Shown piece after piece: positions 8,234 to 30,864 of a stretch of DNA of 32,000 nucleotides. Under the pieces are notes generated by a model that was not told the origin of the DNA, did no database searches, and saw only the letters and a program-made list of their open reading frames with translations. The translations under genes were made by a program, and so were the position numbers. Numbering within the stretch: position 1 is the first letter of the stretch; each line of letters begins with the position of its first letter. Source of the stretch: an uncultured bacterium (GTDB lineage Bacteria > Patescibacteriota > Gracilibacteria > UBA1369 > PNNO01); the NCBI GenBank assembly GCA_963704705.1, contig OY969931.1:1-32000 (forward strand). Direction: 5' to 3'.

Positions 8234-8292
8234 ACTATTAAATTGCTAACACTTCGTGTTGTTTTATTTTCGACAACAGCCACCTCCATACA

Positions 8293-8329
8293 GCTAGCAA
8301 AAAGCTGGCGATTTGCGTACGCTACTTTT
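8293..8329 (+). repeat. 37-nt intergenic motif, copy A (GCTAGCAAAAAGCTGGCGATTTGCGTACGCTACTTTT)
   Basis: 34/37 identical to copy B at 20483-20519. Lies just upstream of the -35 of the 8407 gene promoter. Confidence 0.7.
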
Positions 8330-8406: not shown

Positions 8407-11400
8407 ATGTTTAAACATATCATAAAATATACGGTTACTTTTATTATCGCGTTTATGTCAATTGTTCCTAATGCAATGGCAGCGCGTTTTTATGTAGAAG
8501 ATAACCCAAATCTACGCAAAGGATGTCCGGGTCAGGTTCGTGTTATGCTTGATACCGAAGGCAAGAACGTACTTGCTGCAGATGCGACCATGACTTACAA
8601 CGGCGCCCAGATGAGTGTAACAAATATGGGACTTGGCGTTACTCTTCCAATGCAGACTTACAATGTAATTTCAGGAGCGCTTCTTGAACTTTCAGGAGCC
8701 CGACTCCCTGCTACCGGTTCTTTTACAGGTAACGGACTTTACGGTTTGCTTTCTTTAACTCCTGATCTTGGAGCCGGAAGCATCAACCTTGGTTTTTCTC
8801 CTGATTTGTCAGTTGATAATGTAATCGCGGAAGACGGAACATTTGCAAATATTATTACTGCGGCAACCGGCCGCACTTTTGCTGTTAAAGACCGCTACAA
8901 TGTTGAAGTTGATGGAGTGGGATTCTGTAATCCTGATCTTACTCCACCGACTGTAACATTTATACTTCCTTCAAATGGTCAGGGCGGCGTGCCGGTTGAC
9001 CAGCCAAATGAAATTTTCTCAATCGCTGACAACCGTGCCGGAGTTGATATTTCGACTCTAAAATACACTATTGAAGGAGTTGATTATACAAATTCTACTC
9101 CTCAAACTACTGCCACTGAAGCAGGTGGTGTTTATAAAGTTGAAACAGCTTTTAATAACACGTGGGCTGAAGGTCAGCGTATTGATATAAGTGTTTATGT
9201 CTGCGATTTAAATACTGATCCAGGTCCTAATTGCGGAACAACCACCGGACACTTTAATATATATTCAACTCCGCCACCCGCGCCTTACTGTGGCGACGGA
9301 ATTGTTACATATACTAATGGTGAACAGTGTGATGATGGTAATGTTTTGGATGGCGATGGGTGCAGTGCCCATTGTTTTGATGAAATAGAACCTGTTGAAT
9401 GTCCGGAAGTTCCGGAAGTGGAAGAATGTCCTTCTGCGGGCCTTACTATTATTAAAGATGTTGGAACCGAATACCTTCCTGCTGAATCTCCGGCTGTAAT
9501 AACCGCTCCAACACCTAAAATTACAGAAGCTGATATTATCGAGGGAAATTATCCTGCGGTTGCTTCTCCTGTAAAAGAGAGTATTGCGGGTTGTACACGC
9601 GCAGATATCACCGCTGACCTAATTAAAGAATTTGATATCGTAAACAGATATAATATAAAGGATGAAAAATGTTTGGCAGATATTGAACATTGTATGCTGC
9701 CATTCCTTATACATTCAGCTTATAAAACAGCTGATCCAGAGGCAGACAGATATTACCCTGATGTATACCTGCAGGGTGAAAGAAAAGAACCGTTATTGAC
9801 TGACGATTCCGGCCCTGTAGATTCAAAAACAAAACAAGATATACATTTGGTTACCCGTGAAGGCGGACTTCAGGGCTTCTACCTTGATGTAGCAAACTTA
9901 AGTCCTTTCCGTCCGCAATGGAACATGACAAGAATCCAGATTGTTAAAGCATTAAACTGGGCTGTATTCGGCCAACAGTGGCAATATGAAGATGAATATC
10001 TGGCTGAAATCGGAGGCGAACAAAATCTTCCAAATGTTCGATCTCTTGCAGCAGACCTTACTCAATGGTGGTATCCAAGATACTACAATTTGGCTTGCGA
10101 CAAGGGCATCTTCGATTGTGATCCATTAACAAACTTCAACCCTGATGAAATTTGTTCTCCAACATGGAAACGCGATATATTCGCAAGATACAAAGTATAT
10201 TATGAAAGTCAAAAACAAGATGTTGTTGATCTAACAAAAGACAGCGATCACGACAGCCTTGTTGATGTAGATGAAGAAAATATCTTCTATACTAATCCTG
10301 ACAATAACGATACCGACAACGACACACTTGATGACGCGGACGAAATTTATGAATATAAATCAAATCCAAAACTATCAGATTCAGATTACGATGGTCTGTC
10401 TGATGGCGATGAAGTAAATAAATATAAAACAAGTCCGGTTGATGAAGACACTGACAACGATACATTTACTGACGGTGAAGAAATCAAGCTTGGTACCGAT
10501 CCTTTAGATCCAAAAGATTTCCCTGCAGACGCAAACAATAATGGAATCGATGACAACTGGGAGATTAAATATGGTATAAGCCCGCAAAACGGTACTGACG
10601 ACACTGACGGCGAAGGGCTTTCTGATCTGCTTGAATACCGTTATGGTACAGATCCTACAAATCCGGATACTGACGGCGACGGATTTAGCGATGCAGATGA
10701 AGTATTCCTTTATCAGTCAGATCCATTATCAACTACAAATATCAAAGACCTTGGCGTAAGAATAACAAATGTACTGGACAACATGATTTTGACTGACCCA
10801 CGTCCTTTGATTCAGGGCTTTGCGCCTGCTGAAGGAATGGAAGTTGAAATAATTTTACGAAATGAATTCGGACATGAAGTTGTGCTTGGAACCACTACAA
10901 CCAGCGTAAATAATGCTTGGGTGTTCACTCCTGACTTTGATCTGCTAAATGGTAACTTCTATCTTCTTGCAAAAGGCTTGGACCCTAATAATAAACAGGT
11001 GCTCGAATCGCCGTTAATATATGTAACCATGGATACTACTCTTAAAGTAGACCATCCAAAACCTGAAAGATTATCAGATGTAAATGTTACAGACGAAGTA
11101 TTATTGCAAGATCTTAAAATAGAAATCCGCGATTCTAATCCGACTTTAATAGGCCGCACAGGATTTAAAAATAAAGTAATTGCAACATGGCAATCAGCAG
11201 TTGGTACATCGGCAATAGTTGCCGACCTTGCCGGAGGCGAATTCCGCATCCAGCCTCCAACCGAACTTCCATGGGGCGAACATACTGTCTCGATTTACGC
11301 TATCCGCGAAAGCGACCGTGCAGTTAGTAAAGTTGTAACCCTTAAATTCGAAATCAAAGAACCTCTTGTTTCAATGCTGCGTGGTGTAGCCCTTGGTACA

Positions 11401-11514
11401 GAGCTTGTATTCCCTCTTTGGGTATGGACAACTATATTCTTAGGAATCGCTGCAACATTCGCAACAGTTACAATTATTCGAAAACGAAGAGGTAAAAAAC
11501 TTTTTAAAAAGTAA
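8407..11514 (+). CDS. Large TM-anchored surface protein with cohesin-like N-terminal domain, one Myxococcus-type Cys repeat and thrombospondin-type-3-like Ca-binding repeats
   Basis: Signal peptide. The region of about aa 26-165 has a cohesin-like strand pattern. CGDGIVTYTNGEQCDDGNVLDGDGCSAHC at nt 9284-9375. D-rich DxDxDxxxD repeats at about nt 10240-10720. C-terminal helix plus IIRKRRGKKLFKK. Confidence 0.85.
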   Translation: MFKHIIKYTVTFIIAFMSIVPNAMAARFYVEDNPNLRKGCPGQVRVMLDTEGKNVLAADATMTYNGAQMSVTNMGLGVTLPMQTYNVISGALLELSGARLPATGSFTGNGLYGLLSLTPDLGAGSINLGFSPDLSVDNVIAEDGTFANIITAATGRTFAVKDRYNVEVDGVGFCNPDLTPPTVTFILPSNGQGGVPVDQPNEIFSIADNRAGVDISTLKYTIEGVDYTNSTPQTTATEAGGVYKVETAFNNTWAEGQRIDISVYVCDLNTDPGPNCGTTTGHFNIYSTPPPAPYCGDGIVTYTNGEQCDDGNVLDGDGCSAHCFDEIEPVECPEVPEVEECPSAGLTIIKDVGTEYLPAESPAVITAPTPKITEADIIEGNYPAVASPVKESIAGCTRADITADLIKEFDIVNRYNIKDEKCLADIEHCMLPFLIHSAYKTADPEADRYYPDVYLQGERKEPLLTDDSGPVDSKTKQDIHLVTREGGLQGFYLDVANLSPFRPQWNMTRIQIVKALNWAVFGQQWQYEDEYLAEIGGEQNLPNVRSLAADLTQWWYPRYYNLACDKGIFDCDPLTNFNPDEICSPTWKRDIFARYKVYYESQKQDVVDLTKDSDHDSLVDVDEENIFYTNPDNNDTDNDTLDDADEIYEYKSNPKLSDSDYDGLSDGDEVNKYKTSPVDEDTDNDTFTDGEEIKLGTDPLDPKDFPADANNNGIDDNWEIKYGISPQNGTDDTDGEGLSDLLEYRYGTDPTNPDTDGDGFSDADEVFLYQSDPLSTTNIKDLGVRITNVLDNMILTDPRPLIQGFAPAEGMEVEIILRNEFGHEVVLGTTTTSVNNAWVFTPDFDLLNGNFYLLAKGLDPNNKQVLESPLIYVTMDTTLKVDHPKPERLSDVNVTDEVLLQDLKIEIRDSNPTLIGRTGFKNKVIATWQSAVGTSAIVADLAGGEFRIQPPTELPWGEHTVSIYAIRESDRAVSKVVTLKFEIKEPLVSMLRGVALGTELVFPLWVWTTIFLGIAATFATVTIIRKRRGKKLFKK

Positions 11515-12220: not shown

Positions 12221-12508
12221 ATCCGCGCCCACATGTCAACTTCAATTTTTCAATATGTTGTGTTTTTGGCTTATACAAGCACAAGATGTGGTGTTTCCCG
12301 GCTATCGAAACTTGCAAGAAAAAAAGAACGCGAATATAGTAAAAATACTCTGAAGTGTTCGTTAGAACATTTACATGCAAACCCAACAGCAATTAAAGGG
12401 GAGCCAATATTTTTACTGACCGTGGTCTATAAATGAGGTACCCCACCTAAATTATTAGGTTTGTGCATGTCAACCGCTTCGACGGCAACTTCGGAGTTTT
12501 TTAATGGT

Positions 12509-16210: not shown

Positions 16211-19200
16211 TTGGTTCCGAAAGAAATTAAAATCAGTGAGCTTTTTGACACTGCCCAGAATATTCGCGTTTTGGACCTTTTTCACAAACATAAAAATATG
16301 AGCCTTAGCGGAGCCGGAAACTCCTCTTCAAAAGCGCTTATTGTATTTGAATTATTAAAAAAATTCACTGAATATAAAAAAGTTTTATGGGTTGTTAACG
16401 ACCCGATGGAACAGGAAAACCTCATGAAAACTCTTAGTATTTGGAGCAGCCTGGCAACATACAGTTATATTTTAAAAGAAGAAATTTCCAGGGAGAATTT
16501 AATTGAAACATTGAGTACAATCTCTCATCTTAGGGATTCTGAGCGCAAAATAATTATCGCACCTTACCAGGCGATTTTAGAGAACGTTCCTTCAAAAGAA
16601 GAAGTTGATGAAAAAAAGATTACACTTGAAGAAGGCCAGATAATCACAAATATTGAGCTTATTGAAGCTTTTGTTGATAAGGGTTACGAGGTTGCACCCG
16701 GAGACTTTCTTGAACAGGGAATGTACTACCAGAAAGGTGAAATTATAACGGTTTTTCCTGCGAACTCAGACCATCCTTTAAGAATAGAAATTGCTTTCGA
16801 TAAAATCGAATCAATGGATTATTACGAACAAGAGAATGGCGCGAAATCCATTAAAAAATTGAAAAAAGCAGATATATACCCCTTAAAAATCACAACAGAC
16901 ACAGGAGTTTTAACTGACTATCTAGACAAAAATACGCTTTTAATCGAAGACGAAATTGATGTAATCGACGATTATTTTGACGCGTGGAACGACCTTGTTG
17001 CGGAAGCATACGAAAAAAGCGCCTCATTAACTTTTACAACTTTCAACGAAGACGTGCCGGCGCATGAACATCTTCATTATTTGTCAGTCCTAAAATATCG
17101 GGGTTCATACGATTTTATAAGCGACCTTCGCGATAAACAGCGCACCAACTGGAACGTGGTTGTGTTTACAAAAAAAATTGGCGAATTAAAAACAATGCTC
17201 GACGACAGCAATGTTCCGTATACTCAAGACCCTGTGCAGCTCGCAAACATTCAGGAAAGCCAAAATTTTCTATTTGTTATTGAGATTGATAAAGAAGCGA
17301 TCTTTCCAAAATCTTTCCAAAACCCGGAGATAAAACTTTTATTTTTGTCAGACAAAGATATTCTTTCTTTGCAGGAAGAAGCTAAAAAATCATTCAACCA
17401 AAAAATATATTTAGACTTTTTAACAGGCTTAAAACCAAACGATTATGTTGTACACGCGGATCACGGAATCGCCCGATTCTTAGGCCTTGAGAGAAAAACA
17501 GTGGACGAAATCACCCGCGAATATTTGAAGCTTGGCTATGCAGAAAACGACAAACTTTTTGTGCCGATTGATCAGGCGGACAAAGTGAATAAATATATTG
17601 GAGCTGAAGAGAATGCGCCAAAATTAACAAGGCTCGGCTCTGCCGAATGGTCAACCATGACTAACCGCGTTAAAAAAGAAACCGAAAAAATCGCCAAAGA
17701 ACTACTGGTTTTGTATGCTAAACGAAAAAGCGCAAAAGGATTCGCCTACAAAAAAGACAATGATATTCAGGAGAAATTTGAAGCAACCTTTCCGTACGAA
17801 GAAACTCCGGGCCAATTTAAATCAATCAACGACGTTAAAGAAGATATGGAAAAAGACACGCCAATGGATCGTCTCGTTTGCGGGGATGTTGGGTTTGGAA
17901 AAACAGAGGTTGCAATGCGTGCTGCCTTTAAGGCTGTACAAAGCGGCAAACAGGTTGCGCTTGTTTCGCCGATTACAATTTTGACTGACCAGCATTACAG
18001 ATCTTTTACCAAAAGAATGGATCAATTTAATGTTCGTGTTGAAATGCTTTCTCGTTTTAAATCGCAAAAACAGCAAAAGGAAATTCTCGATAAACTAGCA
18101 AAAGGCGAAGTGGATATTGTTATTGGAACACACAGATTGCTTCAACCCGATGTTAATTTTAAAAATCTTGGACTAATAATTGTGGACGAAGAACAGCGCT
18201 TTGGTGTTAAACAAAAAGAAAAATTAAAAGAAATAAAAAGTGAAGTTGACGTTTTGACTTTAACTGCAACGCCGATTCCGCGAACATTAAACATTTGCTT
18301 AAACAAGCTTCGCGACATAACAACAATTACAACCCCGCCTCCTGGCAGACTTCCGATTATTACCGAGGTTCGCAGATTCAGCAACGGCCTTGTGCGTGAC
18401 GCTATCCTTCGCGAGGTTGCGCGAAACGGACAAATTTATTTTTTGCACAACCGGGTACAGACTATTGACGCAATGGCAGACAAACTGCGAAAACTTGTTC
18501 CTGAAGCCACTTTTGGAGTTGCTCACGGAAAGCTCGGCAGCGGCGATCTTGAAGACAGGATCGTTGCATTTAAAGAACATCAATTCGATGTTTTGGTAAG
18601 CTCAACAATTATTGAGAATGGAATCGACCTTGCGAACGCGAATACCTTGATTGTAAACAACGCGGAAAAATTCGGCTTATCACAACTTTATCAGTTACGC
18701 GGACGTGTAGGCCGCGGCAAAACCCAGGCTTATGCATACTTTTTATATAATGGGCAACGCCTTAAACTGGATGCTAAAAAACGCCTTCGTGCGATAGTTG
18801 AAGCCAGTGACCTCGGCAGCGGTTTCCAGATTGCAATGAAAGATCTCGAGATCAGAGGAGCCGGAGATATCTTGGGCGCAAACCAACATGGCGTTATAAA
18901 TGTTGTGGGCGTTTCGCATTTTATTCGCATGCTCAACAAAGCTGTTGAAGATCTTAAAGCTGGCAGACTTCAGGGCAAAGAAGGCCAGGAGATCGCCGAA
19001 GTCGCAATTGAACTTCCTGTTTCAGCCTTTATCCCTGACGATTATATAGTTAATGCAAAAGATAAAATTAATGCTTATCAAAAATTATCAGGCGCAGACA
19101 ACCTTGAATATTTAAATGACTTAAATGACGAAATGGTCCAGGAGTACGGCAAAATGCCTCGTGAAGTTCAAAATCTGTTCCGTGTACTCGAACTAAAAAT

Positions 19201-19450
19201 AGAAGCCAAAAAAGCAGGCCTTACCAACGTAAAGGCTGAAAACGTATCAATGGCCCGAGGAAAACAAATCGTTTTATCAATGTCGGTTCTCGTTAAACCG
19301 GAAAATATCATGAAGCTTCTTGAGTTTAATCCAAAGTGGCTTATCAGTGGCACAAAGCTAAAAATCAACATCGAAGACTTGGGGCTGCACTGGTTTGATG
19401 CTCTTGTCGACAATGTAAAGGTGCTTCAGAAAAAAATCAAAACAAGCTAG
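16211..19450 (+). CDS. mfd: Transcription-repair coupling factor
   Basis: Superfamily-2 helicase motifs GDVGFGKTEVAMRAAF, DEEQRFGV, TATPIPRT and QLRGRVGR, a CarD/TRCF-like domain (YVVHADHGIARFLGL), and a length of 1079 aa. TTG start. Confidence 0.9.
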   Translation: MVPKEIKISELFDTAQNIRVLDLFHKHKNMSLSGAGNSSSKALIVFELLKKFTEYKKVLWVVNDPMEQENLMKTLSIWSSLATYSYILKEEISRENLIETLSTISHLRDSERKIIIAPYQAILENVPSKEEVDEKKITLEEGQIITNIELIEAFVDKGYEVAPGDFLEQGMYYQKGEIITVFPANSDHPLRIEIAFDKIESMDYYEQENGAKSIKKLKKADIYPLKITTDTGVLTDYLDKNTLLIEDEIDVIDDYFDAWNDLVAEAYEKSASLTFTTFNEDVPAHEHLHYLSVLKYRGSYDFISDLRDKQRTNWNVVVFTKKIGELKTMLDDSNVPYTQDPVQLANIQESQNFLFVIEIDKEAIFPKSFQNPEIKLLFLSDKDILSLQEEAKKSFNQKIYLDFLTGLKPNDYVVHADHGIARFLGLERKTVDEITREYLKLGYAENDKLFVPIDQADKVNKYIGAEENAPKLTRLGSAEWSTMTNRVKKETEKIAKELLVLYAKRKSAKGFAYKKDNDIQEKFEATFPYEETPGQFKSINDVKEDMEKDTPMDRLVCGDVGFGKTEVAMRAAFKAVQSGKQVALVSPITILTDQHYRSFTKRMDQFNVRVEMLSRFKSQKQQKEILDKLAKGEVDIVIGTHRLLQPDVNFKNLGLIIVDEEQRFGVKQKEKLKEIKSEVDVLTLTATPIPRTLNICLNKLRDITTITTPPPGRLPIITEVRRFSNGLVRDAILREVARNGQIYFLHNRVQTIDAMADKLRKLVPEATFGVAHGKLGSGDLEDRIVAFKEHQFDVLVSSTIIENGIDLANANTLIVNNAEKFGLSQLYQLRGRVGRGKTQAYAYFLYNGQRLKLDAKKRLRAIVEASDLGSGFQIAMKDLEIRGAGDILGANQHGVINVVGVSHFIRMLNKAVEDLKAGRLQGKEGQEIAEVAIELPVSAFIPDDYIVNAKDKINAYQKLSGADNLEYLNDLNDEMVQEYGKMPREVQNLFRVLELKIEAKKAGLTNVKAENVSMARGKQIVLSMSVLVKPENIMKLLEFNPKWLISGTKLKINIEDLGLHWFDALVDNVKVLQKKIKTS

Positions 19451-19631
19451 GCAGACGAAATGCGCGGATTGACAAATTTAAAATTTGGATTTTTGGGCGA
19501 TGCTGGCCGGGCAGCTTGTTTTTGGCTTATCAAAAAGAAAAAACAGCTTTGTTTGCGGTTTCGTCCCGGGATGGGATTTGAGGATGACTTTCCTCGCCCG
19601 GCCCAGCAAGAACTCTTCGCCTTTCTGCCCC

Positions 19632-19660
19632 TTGACAAAACCACGTAATTCTTATACAAT
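19632..19660 (+). promoter_or_regulatory. Near-consensus sigma70 promoter (TTGACA-17-TACAAT) upstream of the GC-rich ORF
   Basis: Hexamers read directly. The about 100-nt leader contains the inverted repeat TTGTCA-N11-TGACAA (about 19700-19722). Confidence 0.5.
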
Positions 19661-19766
19661 TGTACTCTTTTGATAAATTGGCGATTCTACTCGCTCGATT
19701 TGTCAGAATGCATCATTGACAAGGCAGCAAGAAGATAACCCACAGCAATTCACTGGGAGGTGAATC

Positions 19767-20378
19767 ATGAAACGTTCGACGTTCAGTTTGGTGGTTTTCG
19801 CAGTCGCGCTCTTCACGGCCACGTCGGTCGCGTCAGCGCACGAGCTCACCCGCAAGGAGAAGACCTTCTCGGTCTTCGGCGGCTTTTCCGCCGACGTCAG
19901 TCACCGCGCCATGGGCGGCGTGGTGGGCATGGAGTTCAAGATCCACCAGTCGGAGCACCACCTCGTGCTCGGCCTCGCCCCCCGCGTCGACATCCTGCAG
20001 GGCCAGACCCCGATCACCATCGGCGTCAACCCCAGCATCGAGACCCTCTTCGTCGACGCCACCCTCAACCTCCGCTTGCGCATGATCGCGGCCGACTGGC
20101 TGGCGATCGTGGGCGACCTCGGAGTGGGCTTGCGCACGGTGCGTCATAACGACGCCATCGTGGACGAGTACCGAATGATCGAGGGTGGCACCCACTACTC
20201 CGCCATGATCTCCTGGGGCGCGGCGCTCGAGTTTCGGCTCAGCGACCTCTTCCGCCTCAGCGGGTTCTACCACGGCGGACTCGCCTTCAACCAGCTGGTC
20301 TCCCTCGGCATCGAGCCGGTCAAACACGACCGGGTCATCCACAAGCTGGGCATCATGCTTTCCATCTTCTTCGAGTAG
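19767..20378 (+). CDS. Signal-peptide protein with 8 amphipathic beta-strand segments (small outer-membrane beta-barrel-like); high-GC, probably foreign
   Basis: SD GGGAGGTG lies 6 nt before the ATG. Signal peptide MKRSTFSLVVFAVALFTATSVASA. Alternating hydrophobic strands (FSVFGGFSADV, VVGMEFKI, LVLGLAPRV, ATLNLRLRM, LAIVGDLGVGLR, AMISWGAALEFRL, RLSGFYHGGLAF, LGIMLSIFF). GC3 is near 100 percent. Confidence 0.7.
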   Translation: MKRSTFSLVVFAVALFTATSVASAHELTRKEKTFSVFGGFSADVSHRAMGGVVGMEFKIHQSEHHLVLGLAPRVDILQGQTPITIGVNPSIETLFVDATLNLRLRMIAADWLAIVGDLGVGLRTVRHNDAIVDEYRMIEGGTHYSAMISWGAALEFRLSDLFRLSGFYHGGLAFNQLVSLGIEPVKHDRVIHKLGIMLSIFFE

Positions 20379-20427
20379 TCGCACGCGCATTCCGCGCTGT
20401 GCCGGCTGCTTCCCGCCTGTCACTTCA

Positions 20428-20463
20428 ACACCCATCGTCCTTCGCGGCGGTGGGTGTCTTTTC
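20428..20463 (+). terminator. GC-rich rho-independent terminator of the GC-rich ORF
   Basis: ACACCCATCGTC / GGCGGTGGGTGT stem (with G-U pairs) followed by CTTTTC. Confidence 0.6.
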
Positions 20464-20482
20464 AAAATCCGCACACACTACT

Positions 20483-20519
20483 GCTAGCAAAAAGCTAGCG
20501 ATTTGCATACGCCACTTTT
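20483..20519 (+). repeat. 37-nt intergenic motif, copy B (GCTAGCAAAAAGCTAGCGATTTGCATACGCCACTTTT)
   Basis: 34/37 identical to copy A at 8293-8329. Contains the self-complementary GCTAGC-A5-GCTAGC hairpin. Confidence 0.7.
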
Positions 20520-20557
20520 GCACACGACCTCCAACCCCAAAGTATATTAAACAACAC

Positions 20558-20585
20558 TTGACTTTTTTCGCAAACAAACTATAAT
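20558..20585 (+). promoter_or_regulatory. Near-consensus sigma70 promoter (TTGACT-16-TATAAT) with about 130-nt structured leader
   Basis: Hexamers read directly. The leader has a nested hairpin (AGTGAC...GTCACT enclosing CCACT-TAAGT-AGTGG). Confidence 0.55.
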
Positions 20586-20722
20586 GATTTTACATTTGTT
20601 AGTGACTAAGGCTTCTCTCTCCCCACTTAAGTAGTGGCTTAAAAAGCACTTCGTCACTTATTTTTGACAAGTAGGGGGTAGTTAAAATTATCCACACACA
20701 CACGAGGAGGACACGTTCGAAA

Positions 20723-20971
20723 ATGGCAAATTCAAAGGGGAAAGGCGATCTGGAGGTTGAAGAGCCGTGCGTTCAGATTGAGTGCACAGTATGCGGCAAA
20801 ACGTTCCCGTGGCATGTCCCAATTTCCTTGAAAGATGAGGTTCTCGCGAGCCTGATCGCTCAGGGGCTGACAAGCGGACACGCCAATCGTGACGTACGCA
20901 GAAAGCGCGCAACCGGGCCCATAAACAAGGCCCAGCTGTCCAAGCGGCAGCAAAAACGCAAGGCCAAGTAG
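20723..20971 (+). CDS. Small (82 aa) protein with a Cys motif and a strongly basic C-terminal tail; function unknown
   Basis: GAGGAGG SD 12 nt upstream. CVQIECTVCGKTF motif. Tail RRKRATGPINKAQLSKRQQKRKAK. The overlapping antisense 128-aa ORF looks like junk (Cys/Arg/Ser/Pro-rich, TTG start). Confidence 0.45.
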   Translation: MANSKGKGDLEVEEPCVQIECTVCGKTFPWHVPISLKDEVLASLIAQGLTSGHANRDVRRKRATGPINKAQLSKRQQKRKAK

Positions 20972-21092
20972 GTCTCGAAGAAACAACGCTGTGTGGGGAT
21001 AAACAAAGAGCGGAGACTTTTAAAGTCAAATCCGTTCCAAACACTACCCCCTCACAGCAAAACCGAACTTTCAAAATCGATCTTTAAAATAT

Positions 21093-21503
21093 GGGGATGT
21101 ACTGGCATTCGACAGAGGTACTATTAATCTGTTAGTTGCAATCAGGGGATCGCGCTGTCTCCCCTCATATCCGTCCAGCGCATTTTTAAGTGCTACAACT
21201 GAAAAAACTGTAGCAGCTGCATACAGAAGTCTCTTCGGAGCTCCTGCAATGGCTGTTGCATAACTAAACGCCAATGCGTTTACGTCTTTATGGTTGATGT
21301 CTGATATTCCATAAAGGCGCCAATTATCAGGCTGGCCAATTTTTTACGGTTTAGATTATTGGCGAGGATGTAGACTAAACCACCCGGCTCGTGTATTTTT
21401 TTGTTCGCTTTCTATTCACGAGACGTAATTAAAACGGACTAAGATTGTAGACGCTGGCATTTTAAGCCTTTGCACCCGGGTTCGACTCCCGGCATCTCCA
21501 CCA
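21093..21503 (+). ncRNA. ssrA: Transfer-messenger RNA (tmRNA)
   Basis: The 5' GGGGATG pairs with the 3' CATCTCC-ACCA, giving a G3:U70 alanine identity pair. T-arm is CCGGG-TTCGACT-CCCGG. An internal tag frame ends ...YRSLFGAPAMAVA-TAA (stop at 21261-21263). Length 411 nt including the encoded CCA. Confidence 0.85.
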
Positions 21504-21518
21504 AAAAACAAAGCCCCC

Positions 21519-23357
21519 TTACGACTGGCCGGCTTTGAGTTTTTCTATAATTTGTTCCGGCGACGAGGAGAACAATTCTGCCAATTCTCCCAAGGGCGAA
21601 CTTAATATTACAGGATCTCCCGGCTCCAGTTTTTCTTTTTCAGATAAAATTCCACCTATTTCATGGGCTCCACCGGCAACAAATAACGAATAGGCTTTTG
21701 ATGCAAACTGTCCTTCACCTATTACGACCAGGCTTTCGCGAAGCTTCTGTGGAATGTTGTCAAAAAATGCCGAACTTAATCTTGTAAGATTTTGAAGACC
21801 GCGGACGCTGGGATCCGTTACAACACAGTTCCAGCCATAAATAATGCTTTCAGGGGTAAATGGGCATAGGCTGCGTTTGATTCTTTCTTCATTAATTCTT
21901 GCTAAAAATTTGCCAAAATCTCTTTGTTTCGGTGAGCGAACGCTAGAATAATACAAAGGATCCTGCCATTCTTCACTTTCAAAAACTCCCTGCACAGTGG
22001 TCTGATGCCCGAACATTAAACCGAGAAGGTTGTCGTTTTCTATATCACGCAGCATTGTAAAATGTGCATTTTCCTGTGATTTTTCCTCAAATCTCTGTAA
22101 TGTGACTTCCGGATCATGCCAGAATACAGCCTTTTCTCCGGTAACAGGATGATGCGAATAAGAATCCAAATCAAAAGTATCCAGATCTTCCATCGACACA
22201 TATTTTTTATCTGTTCCAAATACCTGAGCTGCAGAAATAGGCTTTCCTTCAGAAGGATAAACAAGAAACTGTTTAAATGCATTTGCAAAAATATATCTGA
22301 AAAAGTCGGAAATTTCCCTTAAAGTTTTTTCCGAGATTTCTTCTGAAGTATAATTTTCAATTTTCACTTTTTTCCCCTCCCTGGTTTCAAATGCTGAAGC
22401 GTCAGTCACATCATTTATCGAAATACCTGAATTTATTAGTCTCTCCGGAACAAGGGGGATCCCTTTAAAATACTTTTTATCTTTTTCTAAGTTTTCTGAA
22501 GGATGGAGGCTTCTATATTCAGCCTGAATATCTCTGCCTTCCGCCAGCCTGTCACCAAATTCATGCCTGAACTCATCTCGCGGCATAGAAACTGCTCTTC
22601 TCAAGTCTCCTGCTTTTCTAAGCAGAATTGCAACGCCGCCATATGGATCATACTGCAGATCTTCGTAGCCGAAAGCATGTATGAGCGGATATAAATTTGA
22701 ATCCCGGCGTGTTTCACCGACCGCAATAAGATCATCATATTCAGGATGTTGATTTAAAACCGCCGCAGCCAGATTTGCAAAATTTTGACCTCCTCTCACC
22801 TTTCTTGAAAGAGCCATTCTGTTCCAGAAAAGCGTCTCATGCGAGGCGGCTTCTTCAATTGTCATTTCGATTCTTTGTGCAATTTCCCTGACAATTCCAT
22901 CAACATCATAGGTTCCCCTGTAATTAATGTTTGATTCGACGCCGTCTCTTAACGGAGCCACAAATGAAACAGAAGAACCTTCTATTTTGCCCTCTTTTAA
23001 AAGTAAAGCTCCGTAAACTTTCTGGGAAAAATATAACTTCAGGTATCGTGCCATCAATTCCGGATGGAGCATAAATTCGGCTTTCGCCTCGCAGTCGGGG
23101 CATCTTAAATCAACTTCGCGGGTTCTTTCGAGTTCTTCAAGAGGCACGTATTCCTGGAGAGTGTCTTTAACACCGTAAACTTCATCAACAGACAAAACGC
23201 GTCTGCATTCCGGATTTGTACACACGGCATATTCCCCAAACCCTTTGTACCCGAACCATTCGCGTTCCTGTTTTGCAAGCTCATGCAGTTTATCATCCGG
23301 CAGTTGGCTCATATCCGGGTATTGCATAATTTCAATACCATCATCTTGAGAGTCCAT
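21519..23357 (-). CDS. Uncharacterised 612-aa protein with N-terminal 4-Cys ribbon and two internally repeated halves carrying GNAT-like motif A/B signatures
   Basis: CTNPEC...CPDC. Half 1 is WNRMALSRKVRGGQNFANLAAAVL...NLYPLIHAFGYE and half 2 is WNCVVTDPSVRGLQNLTRLSSAFF...AYSLFVAGGAHE. Starts 6 nt after the decarboxylase stop. Confidence 0.75.
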   Translation of the reverse strand: MDSQDDGIEIMQYPDMSQLPDDKLHELAKQEREWFGYKGFGEYAVCTNPECRRVLSVDEVYGVKDTLQEYVPLEELERTREVDLRCPDCEAKAEFMLHPELMARYLKLYFSQKVYGALLLKEGKIEGSSVSFVAPLRDGVESNINYRGTYDVDGIVREIAQRIEMTIEEAASHETLFWNRMALSRKVRGGQNFANLAAAVLNQHPEYDDLIAVGETRRDSNLYPLIHAFGYEDLQYDPYGGVAILLRKAGDLRRAVSMPRDEFRHEFGDRLAEGRDIQAEYRSLHPSENLEKDKKYFKGIPLVPERLINSGISINDVTDASAFETREGKKVKIENYTSEEISEKTLREISDFFRYIFANAFKQFLVYPSEGKPISAAQVFGTDKKYVSMEDLDTFDLDSYSHHPVTGEKAVFWHDPEVTLQRFEEKSQENAHFTMLRDIENDNLLGLMFGHQTTVQGVFESEEWQDPLYYSSVRSPKQRDFGKFLARINEERIKRSLCPFTPESIIYGWNCVVTDPSVRGLQNLTRLSSAFFDNIPQKLRESLVVIGEGQFASKAYSLFVAGGAHEIGGILSEKEKLEPGDPVILSSPLGELAELFSSSPEQIIEKLKAGQS

Positions 23358-24831: not shown

Positions 24832-27800
24832 ATGTTTCTAGTAAAAAAAAGATTTTTAAAAACACTTATTTGTTTTTTGGTTATATTTCAGTGTGGACTA
24901 GTTTCAGCCATCCCTGCTGCTTTTGCCGCAACAAATATAGGTACAGATGTTACAACGGACGGTGATGTTAAAGCCGGAGACGGATCCTTTATCCTGCTTG
25001 GATCCCAACCCGATCCTGACCCGGCAGGGGTGAATGGTGCTATATATTACAATACAACAAACAGTAAATTTCGTTGTTACGAAAACAGTTCCTGGAAAGA
25101 CTGTATTGCTTCTGCGGCTTCTGTTGTTCTTTCTTCAATCGGTTCCGCGATAGTGGCGAATACAATAAATAACGGCGACTTCGCCCAGATATGGAATTGG
25201 TCGCTTACCACAGCGGATCAGATAGGACTAAATATTTCTGAAAATTTAGCTTCGACAGCAGGTGGGGATCCGCGCCTTTTGGGAATTTCCACTCTTGTTG
25301 GTTCAACCGCACAACCCTTACATATTGAAAATTTTGGCAATAACAACAGTATAAGTGTTGATGACGAGCCGGGTGATACCACGCCTTTTGTAGTAACAGA
25401 AACTGGGCAGGTCGGTGTCGGCACTTCTACTTTTAACGTAGCCAATACTGAAAAATTGAAAGTTGAATCCGAACCCGGATCTCAAAGAATCTCCGGCTTT
25501 TACGGGGATATCAATGCTCCCCAATATATAAGCATTCAAAACAGAAATTCTGGCATCAACGCCAGTTCAGCCATATCCTCAGTTTCTGATGACGGCACAA
25601 CATTTTCAAATTATATCACAACAGGTATTGCGTCGTCGGGTTTTGCAGACCCACTTTATTCGATTGCAGGTCCCCATGATGCATATATTTTTAATGTTGC
25701 TGATTTTTCAGGTACTGGAGGAGGAAATCTCGTTATTGGTACCGCAGAACCTAATAAGAGTATTAAATTTGCTACCGGAGGAGGCCTGGATGCCAGCAAC
25801 GAACGATTAAGAATCGATTCCCTTGGCAATGTTGGAATTGGCACAACAACTCCGGGATCAAAACTTGATGTTAACGGAGAGATAAGATTTTCAAATGCCG
25901 CATCGGATTATGTCGGATTCACAGCTCCGGCAGCAGTTACAACTTCAACAACTTATACTTTGCCGGTAGACGACGGAACCGGCGGTCAGGCTTTGGTAAC
26001 CGATGGTTCAGGCAATTTATCATGGGCATCCGCAACCAGCGTATGGCAAAGAATTGGTACAGTACTTTCGCCGTTAATCGCGGGTGACGATATTACAACC
26101 ACTGGTAACATTTCAGCAACCGGAACAGGAACAGTAACTTCAGCAGGATTATTAACCGGCAGCGGAGGCGCAGATATCAGCGGTGCTGACGTAGAAATAA
26201 ATAAAGACAGCAATTTTAACACTTATATAAATACAGGCACTTCAACCGGAACAGTTAATATTGGAAGCAGTTTGGCAGGAGCCGTTGTGATAGAAAGTGC
26301 ATCAACCGTTACTTTACAGGGCGGAGCCAATACAATTACTTCGCCTACAGGTGAAATAAAATTTCAGGCAGCAGATTCAGCCACTACAGGAGTTGTAAAG
26401 GTTGGAGATGGTGGGGCTGGTTCAACCACACCCGATATTTTGGCTCTTGACGTTAAAAGTGACGCAGGAGATCCGGTATTAGGTAGTAACGGATCAATGT
26501 ATTACAACGCAAATACAAATAAATTTCGCTGCTATGTAAACGGCTCATGGAGCAATTGCGCCAGCGCGGCACTAGACACAACAAGCGCTGCCGTAGCAGC
26601 TAATACAATAAATAACGGCGATAACGCACAAAGATGGAATTGGTCGCTGACCACAGCCAATAAAAAAGGTTTCACTTTTGGTGAAAATGTGGCGTCAACC
26701 GCCAGCGGAGCACCGGTAATATTGACCGCTTCGACCCTGGCTTCGTCAACAGCCATGCCTTTATTTGTGGAAAATTTAGGAAACGGAAACAGCTTCAGAG
26801 TTGACGATTCTTCAGGAGATACAACGCCGTTTTTAATAGATGAAAATGGTAACGTAGCTATAGGCAGTAATTCTTTTGACCCGGTTAATCCCGAAAGATT
26901 AAAAGTAGAGTCTGGGCCTACTTCATCATCCTCTGTTATCTCAGCTTATGGTGATATCGATGCGCCTCTTTATATTGAAGTTAGAGATAGAAATTCTGGA
27001 ACTTCTGCTGCCTCAGTTTTTGCAGCTACAGCTGATGATGGAGACACTGGAACCAATTATGCCGCAATGGGAATTGCTTCTTCTGGATTTAGCGATCCTA
27101 CCTATGGTATTGCAGTTCCGCATGATGCATTCCTTTTTAACGTTGGGGACTTTACTGGTACGCAAGGTGGAAATATGATAATTGGTACTGTAGAGCCGGG
27201 TATGAGTATTAAATTTATTACTGGTGGTGGCGCAGCTGCTACAAATGAACAGATGAGAATTGACGAAAACGGGTACGTGGGAATCAACACAACAACTCCG
27301 GGTTCTGAGCTTGATGTAAACGGAGAGATAAGATTTTCAAATGCCGCATCGGATTATGTCGGATTTGCAGCTCCGGCAGCAGTTACAACTTCAACGACAT
27401 ATACTTTGCCGGCTGATGACGGCTCAAGCGGGGATGCTTTGGTTACAGACGGTTCAGGCAACCTGTCGTGGATGGGAGCCTTACCTCCTCTTAAGAGGGT
27501 AGGTACAACCATTTCTCCGGTTAATGACGGCGACGACATTACTACCTCGGGGAATCTTTATACTACAGGAACCGGCACCATTACCTCAGCAGGTTTATTA
27601 ACAGGCAACGCAGGGGCTGAGATTTCCGGTGCTGTAACGAATATAAACAATAACAGCAATTTTAATACAACAATTAATAATGGCACATCAACAGGGTCAG
27701 TAACAATAGGTAACAGTTCGGCCGGGACAATAGATCTAACAAGTGGCGCAGCCCTTACTTTAAACGGCGGAGCAACTTCCGGCTTTTCAACAACAGCCGG

Positions 27801-30800
27801 AGATATAGCGCTACGACCAGCAGGAACAACAACAACAGCATATGTGAAAATAGGCGATGGAGGAGCTGGCTCAGCAACTCCGGATTTACTTGCCCTTGAT
27901 GTAAAATCAGACGCAGGTGATCCTGCCGGAACAAACGGAGCAATGTATTACAATGCAAATGCAAATAAATTCCGTTGTTATGTAAATGGTTCATGGAGCG
28001 ACTGCGATACAACAGGAGGCACAGCAAGTTTACAGAGCGCATATAATAATGGCCCGGGAATAACAACAGCAGGCGCAGCTGATATTGCTTTCACCTTAAC
28101 TTCAGGCAATTTTACAGCTACAGGCGCAGGCGCGGTTAATTTAACGCCTACCAGCGCTTCAAGCTTTAATTCAGGAGGCGCTTTAACTTTAACAGGAGGA
28201 GCAGCATCAACCTGGTCAACAAGTTCAGGAGCTTTAACAATTACTTCTGCAGCTGCCACTACATGGGGAACAGGCGCCGGGGATTTAACTTTGCAGGCAG
28301 CCGGTTCAGGTACAACAGCCAGTGTTAAAATAGGTGCAGGCGGCGCAGGCTCAACAACACCGGATTTATTTAGCGTTGATGTAAAATCAACTACAGGCGA
28401 TCCTGCAGGCGGATATAATGGCGCGATGTACTATAATGAGTTTGATAATCTTTTCCGCTGTTATGAAGCAGGAGGCTGGAAAAACTGTGGTTCATCAGCA
28501 GCTTCGGCAACCACTTTAGAACAGGCTTATACCGCAGGGCCAACTATAACCACTTCCGGCGCTGATGTTGCATTAATTCTAACTTCAGGCAACTTTACTG
28601 CTTCAGGCGCAGGTTCGGTTGATTTAACGCCGACCAGCGCATCAAGCTTTACTTCAGGCGGCGCATTAACTTTAACCGGTGGCGCGGCATCCAGCTGGAC
28701 AACCACAGCAGGAGCATTAACGATTGATGCGGGAACAACAACTCCGGATGCTCTAAATTTGGGCACAACAAACGCTACGGCGGTAAATATAGGCAATGCT
28801 GGTGCAGCCACGATCAACGCAGGGTCATTTCAGACAGGCAATGATTCAAACACCGGTTCGTTAAAAATAGCAGACGGTTCATCTAATTATATTACCTTAA
28901 TCTCACCGGCGATTGCCGCAGATTACACGTTAACTTTGCCGGCTGACGACGGCACCCCAAACCAGTTTTTATCTACTAATGGCAGTGGCATCTTGTCCTG
29001 GACAAATCCTGTGAATCCAATGACTACCGAAGGGGATATGGCCTATTATACTGCGGGAGCTCCAGCCAGATTGCCAATTGGTATTTCAGGAACGGTATTG
29101 AAATCTGATGGCACAGACCCTGCATGGACAGCTCTGACGAGTTCGGATGTAGGTCTTGGCAACGTAACGAACGATGCTCAGATTTCAAAATCAATCGGAA
29201 CGGCAAAAGGTGATTTAATCGCATACACCGCGAGTAATTCACCGGTAAGATTACCAGTAGGCGCCAACGGTCAATATCTTGTTGTCGATTCAGGTCAGGC
29301 TACAGGTGTAAAATGGTCAAGTCTAACTATCGGAAATGATTCTCTCGATTTTGCACAGTTGATCGACACAATGACAGTTGATGCAAACACTTCAATAGAT
29401 CTCGCGGGATTCAATTTCACGATAAATGATTTAACAGGAGGCGGAGCACTGGGCATATCAACTAATGCAGCAGCTTTAACTTTAACAGCAGGGGCAGCTT
29501 CAACCTGGTCAACTTCTTCAGGTGCATTAACAATTGATTCAGCAGCAGGATTAAACCTTGGAACAACAAATGCAACAGGTATAACAATAGGTAGTGCAGG
29601 CGTAGCTACGACCAACATAGGGTCGTTTCAAACAGGCAATGGGGCAAATACCGGTTCATTAAAAATAGCGGATGGTTCAACGAATTACATCACATTAACT
29701 TCACCTCCAATAGCTACGGATTACACATTAACTTTACCAATTAACACCGGAACAAACGGACAGGCTTTAACTACAAACGGTTCAGGCACATTATCATGGT
29801 CAACAATATTTACAGATCCAATGACAACCAGGGGAGATTTAGTATATAGGGACGCAACAAATACAACTACAAGACTGGGCAGAGGCACTGCCGGCCAGGT
29901 TTTAAAATCAGATGGAACAGATATTTCATGGCAAACATTAACAAATTCGGATGTCGGCCTGGGCAATGTAACAAATACAGCTCAGATTGCAAAATCAATC
30001 GGAACGGCAAAAGGAGATTTAATCGGATATAGTGCAAGCAACACTCCGGCCAGAGTACCTTTAGGGGCACTTAACGGTTATGTTTTAACTCAGGATTCAG
30101 CTTCTGCAGCCGGGGTTAAATGGGCTGCACCTTCTGTTATTGACGACTCACTCGATTTTGCGCAGTTCAGTGATTCAATGACGCTTGACGCAAGCACTTC
30201 AATAAATCTCGCGGGCCAAAATTTAACAATTAATGACGCGACAGGAGGCGGAGCATTAAAATTGGGCACCGTTGATACAACTGGCACGTTATTTGTTCTT
30301 GATACTAAAACAACCGCCGGAGATCCTACCGGCACCAACGGGGCGATGTATTATAACTCCAATTCAAATACAAGGCGCTGTTATGATAACGGAGCATGGA
30401 AAAATTGCGATGCCAACGTTGCCAATTATCTGTTTGCGTATGATACTACGGATCAAACCGTATTAAGTACTGGCGCATTTCAAACGATTACTTTTACCAA
30501 CCCTTCAGCGGTTGCAAGTGGCTGGACTTACAGCGCAGGTAATTTTACCGCTCCTGCAGCCGGCCTTTATCTAGTACAATATAATGCCGAAGTTGGCAGA
30601 GATAACAACGGGGATAGTACAGTTACGATTCGTGCTACAAAAAATGCTGCGGAAATAAGCGGCAGCGCAGCTTTTTCTTCTCCGTCCAAGGGTAATAGAC
30701 CGGTCAGATTAATGAATTCTTTCATGGTCAATTTGTCGGCAAGCGATTTGCTTCAACTTCAATTAACAGCAGACGGTACAGGACACAGTGTTGGCTTGTT

Positions 30801-30864
30801 TTCAAATAATGACTACGGTACAACTAAACCAAGAATAACCCTAACCATAACAAAATTAACTTAA
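24832..30864 (+). CDS. Giant (2010 aa) secreted repeat fibre protein with tail-fibre-like repeats and a C1q/BclA-like C-terminal globular domain
   Basis: Signal peptide. Two units of about 482 aa in tandem. Five copies of a 24-aa NG.MYYN....RCY..G.W..C module. Eight G..GQ.L..DG.G...W-type motifs. Two GD(L)(I/V)Y...RLP.G..G..L..D....GVKW units. C-terminal YLFAYDTTDQ...ITFTN...GNFTAPAAGLYLVQYN...ITLTITKLT jelly-roll pattern (nt 30421-30861). Confidence 0.9.
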   Translation: MFLVKKRFLKTLICFLVIFQCGLVSAIPAAFAATNIGTDVTTDGDVKAGDGSFILLGSQPDPDPAGVNGAIYYNTTNSKFRCYENSSWKDCIASAASVVLSSIGSAIVANTINNGDFAQIWNWSLTTADQIGLNISENLASTAGGDPRLLGISTLVGSTAQPLHIENFGNNNSISVDDEPGDTTPFVVTETGQVGVGTSTFNVANTEKLKVESEPGSQRISGFYGDINAPQYISIQNRNSGINASSAISSVSDDGTTFSNYITTGIASSGFADPLYSIAGPHDAYIFNVADFSGTGGGNLVIGTAEPNKSIKFATGGGLDASNERLRIDSLGNVGIGTTTPGSKLDVNGEIRFSNAASDYVGFTAPAAVTTSTTYTLPVDDGTGGQALVTDGSGNLSWASATSVWQRIGTVLSPLIAGDDITTTGNISATGTGTVTSAGLLTGSGGADISGADVEINKDSNFNTYINTGTSTGTVNIGSSLAGAVVIESASTVTLQGGANTITSPTGEIKFQAADSATTGVVKVGDGGAGSTTPDILALDVKSDAGDPVLGSNGSMYYNANTNKFRCYVNGSWSNCASAALDTTSAAVAANTINNGDNAQRWNWSLTTANKKGFTFGENVASTASGAPVILTASTLASSTAMPLFVENLGNGNSFRVDDSSGDTTPFLIDENGNVAIGSNSFDPVNPERLKVESGPTSSSSVISAYGDIDAPLYIEVRDRNSGTSAASVFAATADDGDTGTNYAAMGIASSGFSDPTYGIAVPHDAFLFNVGDFTGTQGGNMIIGTVEPGMSIKFITGGGAAATNEQMRIDENGYVGINTTTPGSELDVNGEIRFSNAASDYVGFAAPAAVTTSTTYTLPADDGSSGDALVTDGSGNLSWMGALPPLKRVGTTISPVNDGDDITTSGNLYTTGTGTITSAGLLTGNAGAEISGAVTNINNNSNFNTTINNGTSTGSVTIGNSSAGTIDLTSGAALTLNGGATSGFSTTAGDIALRPAGTTTTAYVKIGDGGAGSATPDLLALDVKSDAGDPAGTNGAMYYNANANKFRCYVNGSWSDCDTTGGTASLQSAYNNGPGITTAGAADIAFTLTSGNFTATGAGAVNLTPTSASSFNSGGALTLTGGAASTWSTSSGALTITSAAATTWGTGAGDLTLQAAGSGTTASVKIGAGGAGSTTPDLFSVDVKSTTGDPAGGYNGAMYYNEFDNLFRCYEAGGWKNCGSSAASATTLEQAYTAGPTITTSGADVALILTSGNFTASGAGSVDLTPTSASSFTSGGALTLTGGAASSWTTTAGALTIDAGTTTPDALNLGTTNATAVNIGNAGAATINAGSFQTGNDSNTGSLKIADGSSNYITLISPAIAADYTLTLPADDGTPNQFLSTNGSGILSWTNPVNPMTTEGDMAYYTAGAPARLPIGISGTVLKSDGTDPAWTALTSSDVGLGNVTNDAQISKSIGTAKGDLIAYTASNSPVRLPVGANGQYLVVDSGQATGVKWSSLTIGNDSLDFAQLIDTMTVDANTSIDLAGFNFTINDLTGGGALGISTNAAALTLTAGAASTWSTSSGALTIDSAAGLNLGTTNATGITIGSAGVATTNIGSFQTGNGANTGSLKIADGSTNYITLTSPPIATDYTLTLPINTGTNGQALTTNGSGTLSWSTIFTDPMTTRGDLVYRDATNTTTRLGRGTAGQVLKSDGTDISWQTLTNSDVGLGNVTNTAQIAKSIGTAKGDLIGYSASNTPARVPLGALNGYVLTQDSASAAGVKWAAPSVIDDSLDFAQFSDSMTLDASTSINLAGQNLTINDATGGGALKLGTVDTTGTLFVLDTKTTAGDPTGTNGAMYYNSNSNTRRCYDNGAWKNCDANVANYLFAYDTTDQTVLSTGAFQTITFTNPSAVASGWTYSAGNFTAPAAGLYLVQYNAEVGRDNNGDSTVTIRATKNAAEISGSAAFSSPSKGNRPVRLMNSFMVNLSASDLLQLQLTADGTGHSVGLFSNNDYGTTKPRITLTITKLT

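Follow-up and report, generated by a model that had tools for sequence, protein, structure and literature searches.

The stretch of DNA analysed here (the window) comprises 32,000 nucleotides from an uncultured bacterium (positions 1 to 32,000 of contig OY969931.1, assembly GCA_963704705.1, forward strand), and the subject of this report is the 1,642-bp spacer that separates mfd from ssrA, the gene of transfer-messenger RNA (tmRNA). The window was assigned to Candidatus Peribacteria/Peregrinibacteria of the candidate phyla radiation (CPR), with a genome GC content of 41%, and the nearest relatives of its Mfd protein among GTDB species genomes (76-86% identity) came from metagenome-assembled and single-cell genomes that bear the label Candidatus Peribacteria, Peregrinibacteria or Patescibacteria. 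Two expression modules were identified in the spacer: module A (19632-20463), a cassette carrying the open reading frame (ORF) ORF203, and module B (20558-21092), which carries ORF82 and leads into the tmRNA gene (Table 1). The mfd gene was used as the anchor in comparing loci, and loci of relatives are referred to by L numbers and their proteins by P numbers.

Table 1. Features of the mfd-ssrA spacer and of other parts of the window (SD, Shine-Dalgarno; GC3, G+C fraction at third codon positions; z, z-score).
Feature	Coordinates	Strand	Properties
Very large predicted extracellular proteins	5872-7929, 8407-11514, 24832-30864		window ORFs
mfd (transcription-repair coupling factor)	16211-19450	+	left flank; Pfam UvrB_inter, CarD_TRCF_RID, DEAD, Helicase_C, TRCF
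Post-mfd spacer	19451-19631	+	10-bp perfect inverted repeat 19439-19448 / 19513-19522 included
Promoter P1	19632-19660	+	TTGACA-17-TACAAT; 11/12 of sigma-70 consensus
Hairpin at 5′ end of ORF203 mRNA	19668-19708	+	17 bp; -18 kcal/mol, z -3.2
SD box of ORF203	19755-19762	+	GGGAGGTG, before ATG 19767
ORF203, predicted secreted barrel	19767-20378	+	SD-led; GC3 0.92; signal peptide codons 1-24, ASA/HE cleavage motif
Intrinsic terminator	20428-20463	+	12-bp perfect GC-rich stem 20428-20457, then UCUUUUC; -20.4 kcal/mol, z -4.7
Host-type palindromic intergenic repeat	20470-20520		core GCTAGC-AAAAA-GCT(A/G)GC, flanking GCATACGC repeats
Promoter P2	20558-20585	+	TTGACT-16-TATAAT; 11/12; no other good promoter ahead of ORF82 and tmRNA
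Structured leader RNA	20592-20685	+	hairpin 20601-20658, then AGTAGGGGGTAGT at 20670-20682
ORF82, small basic protein	20723-20971	+	SD GAGGAGG 20704-20710; GC3 0.65
Structured trailer RNA	20988-21058	+	nested hairpin; -31.2 kcal/mol, z -6.65
tmRNA (ssrA)	21093-21503	+	ARAGORN; Rfam RF00023, 112.3 bits against gathering threshold 47, full length 1-374

Expression signals and base composition of module A

The original prediction for this DNA, which was made from the letters alone, had described the region as self-contained expression cassettes of foreign composition. Both promoters it named were confirmed, as was the GC-rich terminator, and canonical SD boxes preceded both ORFs; the description as self-contained modules was upheld. 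Absence of SD boxes elsewhere, which had also been claimed, held for all 18 other long ORFs of the window apart from a doubtful GTG start at 172, and an SD-like 5-mer was found in only 2 of 82 long ORFs when the window and the loci of nine relatives (L011-L016, L022, L028 and L063) were taken together. The host genes start behind A/T-rich leaders, essentially without SD boxes.

The promoter P1 and the 5′ untranslated region (UTR) of the cassette were AT-rich and host-like, and this character was retained across the members of the family, including L060 with its low GC3 of 0.48. An equivalent of P1 was kept in L001, L006, L057 (12/12), L059 and L060. The hairpin at the 5′ end of the mRNA was kept in seven homologous loci, with three pairs changed on both sides and pairing retained, and it would serve as a stabiliser or regulator of the ORF203 mRNA. 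The sequence context of the SD box, ATTCACTGGGAGGTGAATCATG, was the same in L057 and in the window despite a protein identity of 44%. Compensatory changes were present in the terminator stem in L001, and analogous hairpins were found in L006 and L057. On account of its near-consensus promoter, conserved hairpin, strong SD box and strong terminator, module A would give rise to a stable and strongly translated mRNA, i.e. it is probably a high-expression unit. The strong SD box may in turn offset the GC-rich mRNA in a genome where the other genes use A/U-rich leaders lacking SD boxes.

The G+C counts reported initially (80/120 in 19921-20040 against 38/120 in 16261-16380, within mfd) were exact on recounting. 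It was likewise confirmed that all 30 codons at 19986-20075 end in G or C, and the full run extends over 73 codons (ORF203 codons 46-118). The GC content of ORF203 was 0.639, with 0.61, 0.39 and 0.92 at the first, second and third codon positions, respectively (GC3 0.917), against a GC3 of 0.38 for mfd and 0.16-0.40 for the remaining 17 long ORFs of the window. In 600-bp windows of the 32-kb sequence, mean GC outside ORF203 was 0.405 ± 0.044 with a maximum of 0.498, which places ORF203 5.35 standard deviations above that mean (z 5.35). The region is thus compositionally aberrant by GC as well as by GC3. Abrupt composition steps were located at approximately 19.79 and 20.46 kb, the latter in line with the earlier suggestion that the GC-rich part reaches only to about 20.47 kb.

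Relatives of module A and the age of its composition

Homologues of ORF203, whose gene is called the barrel gene below after its predicted fold, were few. Three homologous clusters were found among 5.8e9 proteins, and a profile search of 1.84e9 representatives returned seven proteins, five of them beyond the first three clusters and one spurious (P0009, a long repeat protein aligning over short stretches only, which was rejected), giving eight known relatives with both searches combined. None was found in GTDB species genomes, IMG/VR viral contigs, phage genomes (tblastn) or plasmids, and a search of 72,556 plasmid records gave no match to the cassette at the DNA level.

In the closer relatives, the barrel gene directly followed mfd wherever the upstream context was visible. 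In L001 and L002, with barrels 87-88% identical to ORF203, the full upstream synteny was preserved (M50 peptidase ... dnaN-mfd-barrel), and the same cassette was present after mfd in L003-L005 of the same group. The gene lay immediately 3′ of mfd in L006, L007 and L063 (60% identity), in L057 (41-44%) and in L061 (31-34%), and apparently behind the last mfd codons in L059 (65%). The post-mfd spacer aligned closely to that of the L001 lineage save for one insertion or deletion, and was mostly missing in L006.

At least 10 contigs, obtained independently from various samples with various assemblers, contain the left junction from mfd into the cassette. The contigs of L057 and L063 cross both junctions, continuing through an ORF82-type unit and the tmRNA and beyond, and the right junction through ORF82 to the tmRNA was reproduced in L057, L063 and L006. 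A metagenome assembly chimera, or non-native DNA of vector or synthetic origin, had been offered among the explanations, and the abrupt composition steps as well as an assembly-breaking repeat at 20480-20520 would suit a chimera; but because independent contigs from other samples reproduce both junctions, both possibilities fell away; the DNA also had no counterpart in the 72,556 plasmid records. The chance that either applies is negligible.

Identity of the barrel to its homologues fell monotonically with that of Mfd. For the C-terminal part of Mfd and the barrel, respectively, the identities to the window were 99 and 88%, 91 and 60%, 90 and 44%, and 81 and 34%. In the closest pair, nonsynonymous divergence (dN) amounted to 0.08 in the barrel gene and 0.02 in mfd; the next pair gave 0.34 and 0.06, respectively. 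The synonymous sites of mfd were saturated between the window and L006 or L057 (proportion of synonymous differences 0.70-0.73). As judged from these alignments, the comparison shows vertical inheritance of the barrel gene at the mfd site, accompanied by very fast protein evolution.

GC3 of the barrel gene was 0.89-0.92 in the close homologues L001, L006 and L057, and 0.83, 0.74, 0.74, 0.69 and 0.48 in the more distant ones, the lowest value being that of L060. Between the window and L057, the same codon was used at identical residues with a frequency of 0.55, when 0.56 is expected for independent draws, and 15 of 30 third-position differences were swaps between G and C, with GC3 at 0.92 and 0.89 in the two genes. 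Between the window and L001, changes from A/T to G/C (10) and from G/C to A/T (8) were balanced. Full synonymous turnover with GC3 of about 0.9 retained implies that the composition is persistent and not that of a recent import which has yet to ameliorate. Since a neutral foreign remnant would have drifted to the GC3 of the host, the GC-rich state appears to be stationary and held by a directional force. Across the homologues, GC at first codon positions (GC1) rose with GC3 from 0.48 to 0.65 (r = 0.92), when GC at second positions did not, and the GC content of the 3′ UTR climbed with GC3 from 0.45 to 0.72. Candidates for the force would be selection on the GC content, stability or expression of the mRNA, or a local GC-biased process.

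A recent acquisition without integrase, from a GC-rich donor whose composition has not yet drifted to that of the host, was the remaining explanation of the original prediction. It would account for the GC of 0.64 and GC3 of 0.92 in a host with GC3 of 0.16-0.40 and genes lacking SD boxes, for the absence of the cassette in several relatives at similar Mfd distance (L012, L028, L013, L015, L016 and L022), and for the GC-rich context of the homologue in L062. This explanation is not borne out and we consider it quite unlikely, as the same promoter, 5′ hairpin and site recur in lineages with saturated synonymous sites in mfd, the divergence of the barrel tracks that of Mfd, and codon choice is randomised at a GC3 of about 0.9. 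Moreover, the promoter and 5′ UTR consist of AT-rich, host-like sequence, donor homologues numbered zero among the 1.84e9 representatives and the GTDB genomes, and the absence in L011 is a loss, not a primary absence. Several diverged relatives, assembled independently from other samples, carry this cassette after mfd with equally extreme GC3, and this marks an old resident, which is how the original prediction would have read such conservation.

The reading we prefer, with a probability of about 0.62, is that this lineage possesses the mfd-ssrA spacer as a native, hypervariable accessory locus with two expression modules, which is neither an artefact nor a recent island. The distance between mfd and ssrA was shortest in L016 (58 bp) and longest in L063 (about 1.9 kb), against 1,642 bp in the window and 75, 105, 565, 845 and 1,185 bp in others, with differing cargo. 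In L011, the closest GTDB relative, a remnant of the 3′ UTR of the cassette together with the palindromic motif was found right behind the mfd stop codon (4486-4600), which points to deletion of the barrel gene. As far as these loci tell, the spacer is one that changes by gains and losses, with one deletion remnant.

The host-type intergenic motif noted earlier near 20483-20519 proved real. The palindromic repeat (ca. 38 nt) consists of the core followed by GATTTGC(A/G)TACGC, and a near-copy at 8290-8328 makes two in the window. Of five contigs from the closest relatives, four (L001, L002, L004 and L005) terminate inside this repeat, and the sequence flanking it is inverted in L011 and L059.

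tmRNA genes are classical integration sites. The spacer resembles tmRNA (ssrA) islands in being a variable accessory segment that adjoins ssrA and has different contents in different close relatives, and differs from them in that it is located on the 5′ side, either between promoter and gene or upstream of the promoter, and in that it consists of single-gene cassettes of 0.5-1.1 kb with neither an integrase nor a duplicated ssrA segment. The initial observation that no integrase, att duplication or transposase is visible was confirmed: integrase and transposase Pfam domains were missing from ORF203, ORF82 and the flanking ORFs, and no att-like duplication was found, the direct repeats of 10-12 nt being at chance level. 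The segment 19466-19510 was considered as a displaced ssrA promoter and 5′ end, and was rejected, as the local alignment (19451-19640 tested) was no better than with shuffled sequences.

ORF203 as a predicted membrane beta-barrel

The N-terminus of ORF203, MKRSTFSLVVFAVALFTATSVASA followed by HE, has by inspection the basic n-region, hydrophobic core and AxA motif of a signal peptide, and the residues ASAH were invariant in four homologues. The protein would be exported via Sec and cleaved after ASA. AlphaFold with a nine-sequence alignment gave a model with a predicted local distance difference test score (pLDDT) of 85.4, a predicted template modelling score (pTM) of 0.75 and eight long antiparallel strands. 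When this model was compared with the PDB by Foldseek, the top matches were all outer-membrane barrels (the OmpA transmembrane domain, Ail, OmpX, NspA and OmpW) with probability 1.0 and E-values from 2e-6 to 1e-3, and in BFVD the matches were phage-encoded outer-membrane barrels of OmpX/Ail type, with E-values down to 3e-6. ORF203 is accordingly predicted to be an eight-stranded membrane beta-barrel of the OmpX/OmpA type.

Besides the signal peptide and the eight predicted strands, ORF203 shares with these outer-membrane barrels the alternation of hydrophobic and polar residues in the strands. An aromatic motif at the C-terminus may correspond to the beta-signal of such barrels, which ends in an aromatic residue: P0002 ends in LSLHF and P0007 in TLFF, whereas ORF203 and most other members extend one or two residues beyond the aromatic residue (FFE, FFIE, FFLK, VFFD), unlike the known barrels. 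ORF203 further differs from them in having no sequence-family membership, with identities of 10-14% in the structural alignments, and in coming from bacteria that are considered monoderm. No Pfam or NCBIfam match was obtained at E ≤ 0.1 for ORF203, P0004, P0007 or P0008; the family profile gave no usable match among PDB sequences, and ORF203 gave none in PHROGs or PADLOC. By the model, the ORF203 family is one of OmpX/OmpA-type fold that stands outside any described family.

That the GC-rich stretch is a structured RNA or another non-coding element, with ORF203 as a by-product open frame, was considered highly improbable. GC-rich DNA does yield long spurious ORFs, and a 213-aa ORF antisense to ORF203 (19833-20474) is open in the window and in L063; the codon-position signal of ORF203 is strong, however, the protein alignment of the family is conserved with dN below the synonymous divergence dS (dN/dS < 1), the signal peptide is canonical and the AlphaFold barrel is confident. 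The antisense ORF itself was rejected as a by-product of shunning A-ending codons, since its stops correspond to the sense codons TTA, CTA and TCA.

Phage morons such as lom and bor of lambda, which are autonomous modules of promoter, gene and terminator, show some likeness to module A, and Lom of lambda belongs to the OmpX/Ail family. Like a moron, module A has its own sigma-70 promoter and intrinsic terminator, lies between unrelated genes, departs from its neighbours in composition, and carries as cargo what is predicted here to be a small barrel of the OmpX/Ail type. This layout, the phage-encoded barrels in BFVD and the use of tmRNA genes as integration sites would suit the remnant of a prophage or another mobile element beside ssrA. 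Unlike morons, module A is found outside any prophage, with mfd and ssrA for neighbours, and has kept one chromosomal site and its odd composition through the divergence of several lineages. In addition, the flanks in the window contained no integrase, att duplication or phage gene, no PHROGs match, IMG/VR locus or tblastn match in phage genomes was obtained, and the insertion is on the 5′ side of ssrA. A remnant of this kind is very unlikely.

Ancient capture of the barrel gene from a GC-rich diderm bacterium would fit the barrel fold, the SD box and the GC richness, and is a plausible candidate for its origin; no donor was found among the 1.84e9 representatives, GTDB, phages or plasmids.

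Two further cases of GC-rich genes were noted. The contig L062 (1-983) encodes P0005 (154 aa), a 5′-truncated barrel homologue that lacks strands one to three and carries a lipoprotein-like signal (LVAC). P0005 starts 3 nt behind an ORF with a GC3 of 0.90, for which no family assignment was found, and is followed by a terminator and a perfect TTGACA/TATAAT promoter. The other, in L028 (750-1817, start probably ATG 805), forms an island with GC 0.56 and GC3 0.69 in a Peribacteria single-cell genome, far from ssrA. GC-rich, SD-led genes may thus constitute a small recurring class in these genomes.

The following points weigh against a native and persistent accessory locus. The fold model was built from nine sequences only, and an AlphaFold run with four sequences gave a pLDDT of 48. 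Patescibacteria are regarded as single-membrane bacteria without an outer membrane (PMC12102498; PMC8871954), which leaves the barrel without an obvious home in its producer; sortase and S-layer proteins are encoded in Peribacteria genomes (PMC4736985). Some of the co-divergence points use Mfd fragments of only 61-145 aa. The promoters, transcript ends, read-through into the tmRNA and processing were all deduced from sequence, and the lasting high GC3 could stem either from selection on the mRNA or from a GC-biased process. Finally, P0005 is 50% identical to ORF203 over 123 aa, which is closer than some Peribacteria homologues (L057, L061 and L060), and the position of L062 in a GC-rich context beside a GC-rich gene hints at exchange with a GC-rich pool. 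The SD-led gene of L028, of the metallo-beta-lactamase fold (Lactamase_B_2), is in turn compatible with repeated imports.

These last points would agree with repeated re-acquisition of, or gene conversion from, a GC-rich pool, e.g. DNA of GC-rich diderm hosts taken up by DNA-scavenging epibionts, which would hold the locus at high GC in every lineage. P0005 is situated in DNA with a GC of 0.68, folds of this type are characteristic of the outer membranes of diderms, and GC1 and the 3′ UTR are enriched in GC as well, as would be the case in imported DNA. Nevertheless, the largest searches gave no homologue in a GC-rich organism apart from that one 983-bp contig, which ends in a Peribacteria-style TTGACAAAG...TATAAT promoter and so may be a Peribacteria locus itself. 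The AT-rich promoter and 5′ hairpin travel with the gene even in the low-GC L060, and the monotonic relation to Mfd would demand strict co-speciation with the donors. We regard re-acquisition as unlikely, although less so than the other alternatives to the native accessory locus.

Module B, the tmRNA and the flanking genes

P2 would be the promoter of ssrA. A P2-like promoter was found also in L012 and L057, with none closer to the tmRNA in these loci, and the stretch from 20700 to 21092 of the window had no detectable promoter or terminator, nor was either present before the tmRNA in L012 and L057. In the bare locus L016, a promoter with TTGACA and a 17-nt spacing was located 22 nt ahead of the tmRNA. 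Module B may therefore have been inserted between the tmRNA and the promoter of ssrA, as suggested by P2 being the sole promoter, by the lack of a terminator or further promoter before the tmRNA, and by the bare loci with an adjacent promoter. The P2 transcript probably includes the tmRNA as its 3′ part. Transcription would read through from P2, with subsequent 5′ processing of the tmRNA, in which case ORF82 would be co-expressed with it.

The RNA elements that flank ORF82 were better conserved than the ORF. Across four lineages, nucleotide identity was 67-80% in the promoter and leader, 48-63% in the ORF and 74-84% in the trailer. Two pairs of the leader hairpin had changes on both sides, and compensatory changes were found in the inner stem of the trailer. 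When the divergent L014 and L015 were added, the leader alignment collapsed and gave no structure. The leader motif AGTAGGGGGTAGT was present in single copy, upstream of the tmRNA only, and the 3′ strand of the trailer, ACTACCCCCT (21043-21052), is a 10-nt perfect complement of leader positions 20673-20682. As this complementarity overlaps the trailer's own stem, two alternative pairings would be possible. An Rfam scan of 19400-21150 at E ≤ 10, and of the homologous region of L063 at E ≤ 1, returned only noise besides the tmRNA.

ORF82 is a fast-evolving protein, and its conserved parts were the N-terminus MANS.GKG, two Cys residues and a basic C-terminal tail, RR.R.TGP[IM]NK.QLSKRQ. ORF82 was 41% identical to the corresponding ORF of L063 and 32% to that of L012, and the counterpart in L057 could not be aligned. 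No homologue was found by word-based search, and no match in Pfam, NCBIfam or PHROGs. Other small basic ORFs led by an SD box were present at the place of ORF82 in L015, in L028 and in a third unit of L063. A different cassette was observed in L063 (2262-2757, between the trailer of ORF78 and the tmRNA) and in L028 (9235-9560, directly after mfd), and is equipped with a promoter of its own, a conserved leader (GCGCTACCCTA...TTTAGAGGTGG...ATCATGCC), an SD box and a small Arg/Lys-rich ORF.

In Bacillus subtilis, smpB and ssrA are co-transcribed. Module B is comparable to this operonic tmRNA in that the tmRNA apparently forms the 3′ part of a longer, protein-encoding transcript. It is unlike it in that the upstream ORF encodes a lineage-specific basic protein of 60-80 aa and not SmpB, and in that this ORF is bracketed by conserved, mutually complementary structured RNA elements. 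Small basic ORFs between promoter and tmRNA, flanked by RNA structures, would make an ssrA transcription unit of a kind not described before, and an insertion from promoter to tmRNA could bear on tmRNA maturation or on ribosome rescue in CPR bacteria.

The tag encoded by the window tmRNA was predicted by ARAGORN as ATTEKTVAAAYRSLFGAPAMAVA, followed by a stop. Predicted tags in the window, L012-L031, L057 and L063 were mostly 21-30 aa long and divergent even among close relatives (ATTEKTVAAAYRSLFGAPAMAVA against ADEAYNKAAFAKLFKAPALRVPAMAVA), and in more distant relatives a short tag, APAFAFAA, was observed.

GC anomalies within bacterial genomes are usually read as recent transfer, and ORF203, with a GC3 of about 0.9 in a genome where it is about 0.3, cautions against calling transfers or chimeras from composition only. 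The gene is also a compact natural case for studying what holds one bacterial gene off the genomic base composition. As a predicted secreted protein with an outer-membrane barrel fold in a presumed single-membrane CPR bacterium, ORF203 is a testable candidate for the interface between CPR bacteria and their hosts. A joint reading of the two modules is that Peribacteria mass-secrete an OmpX-like barrel which enters the host's outer membrane, the host being a diderm, without the barrel assembly machinery (BAM), and that ORF82 is a tmRNA-linked protein acting on ribosomes; taken as a whole, this is speculative and rather improbable. If it were true, the barrel would be a pore or an anchor at the interface of epibiont and host, and an arms race with the host would account for the rapid protein evolution and patchy loss. 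The GC-rich, SD-led design would then reflect selection for a stable, highly translated mRNA or ongoing exchange of DNA with the host, and ORF82 would be co-transcribed within the leader of the pre-tmRNA, with its basic tail acting on ribosomes.

Among the ORFs flanking the spacer, Pfam identified Mfd and a decarboxylase, together with a 612-aa ORF without family. This last ORF (21519-23357, minus strand) converges on the 3′ end of the tmRNA, with 15 nt from its stop to the tmRNA end, and had no match in Pfam, NCBIfam, PHROGs or PADLOC. Among the very large predicted extracellular proteins of the window, a 2010-aa ORF had zero Pfam matches, and two contained DUF4215 cysteine-rich repeats with fn3 or TSP3 domains; DUF4215 cysteine-rich repeat proteins have been described earlier for Peribacteria (PMC4736985). 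A 6S RNA (RF00013, 62.5 bits) was located at 12344-12501 on the plus strand, with the M50 peptidase gene on one side and a group of minus-strand genes on the other.

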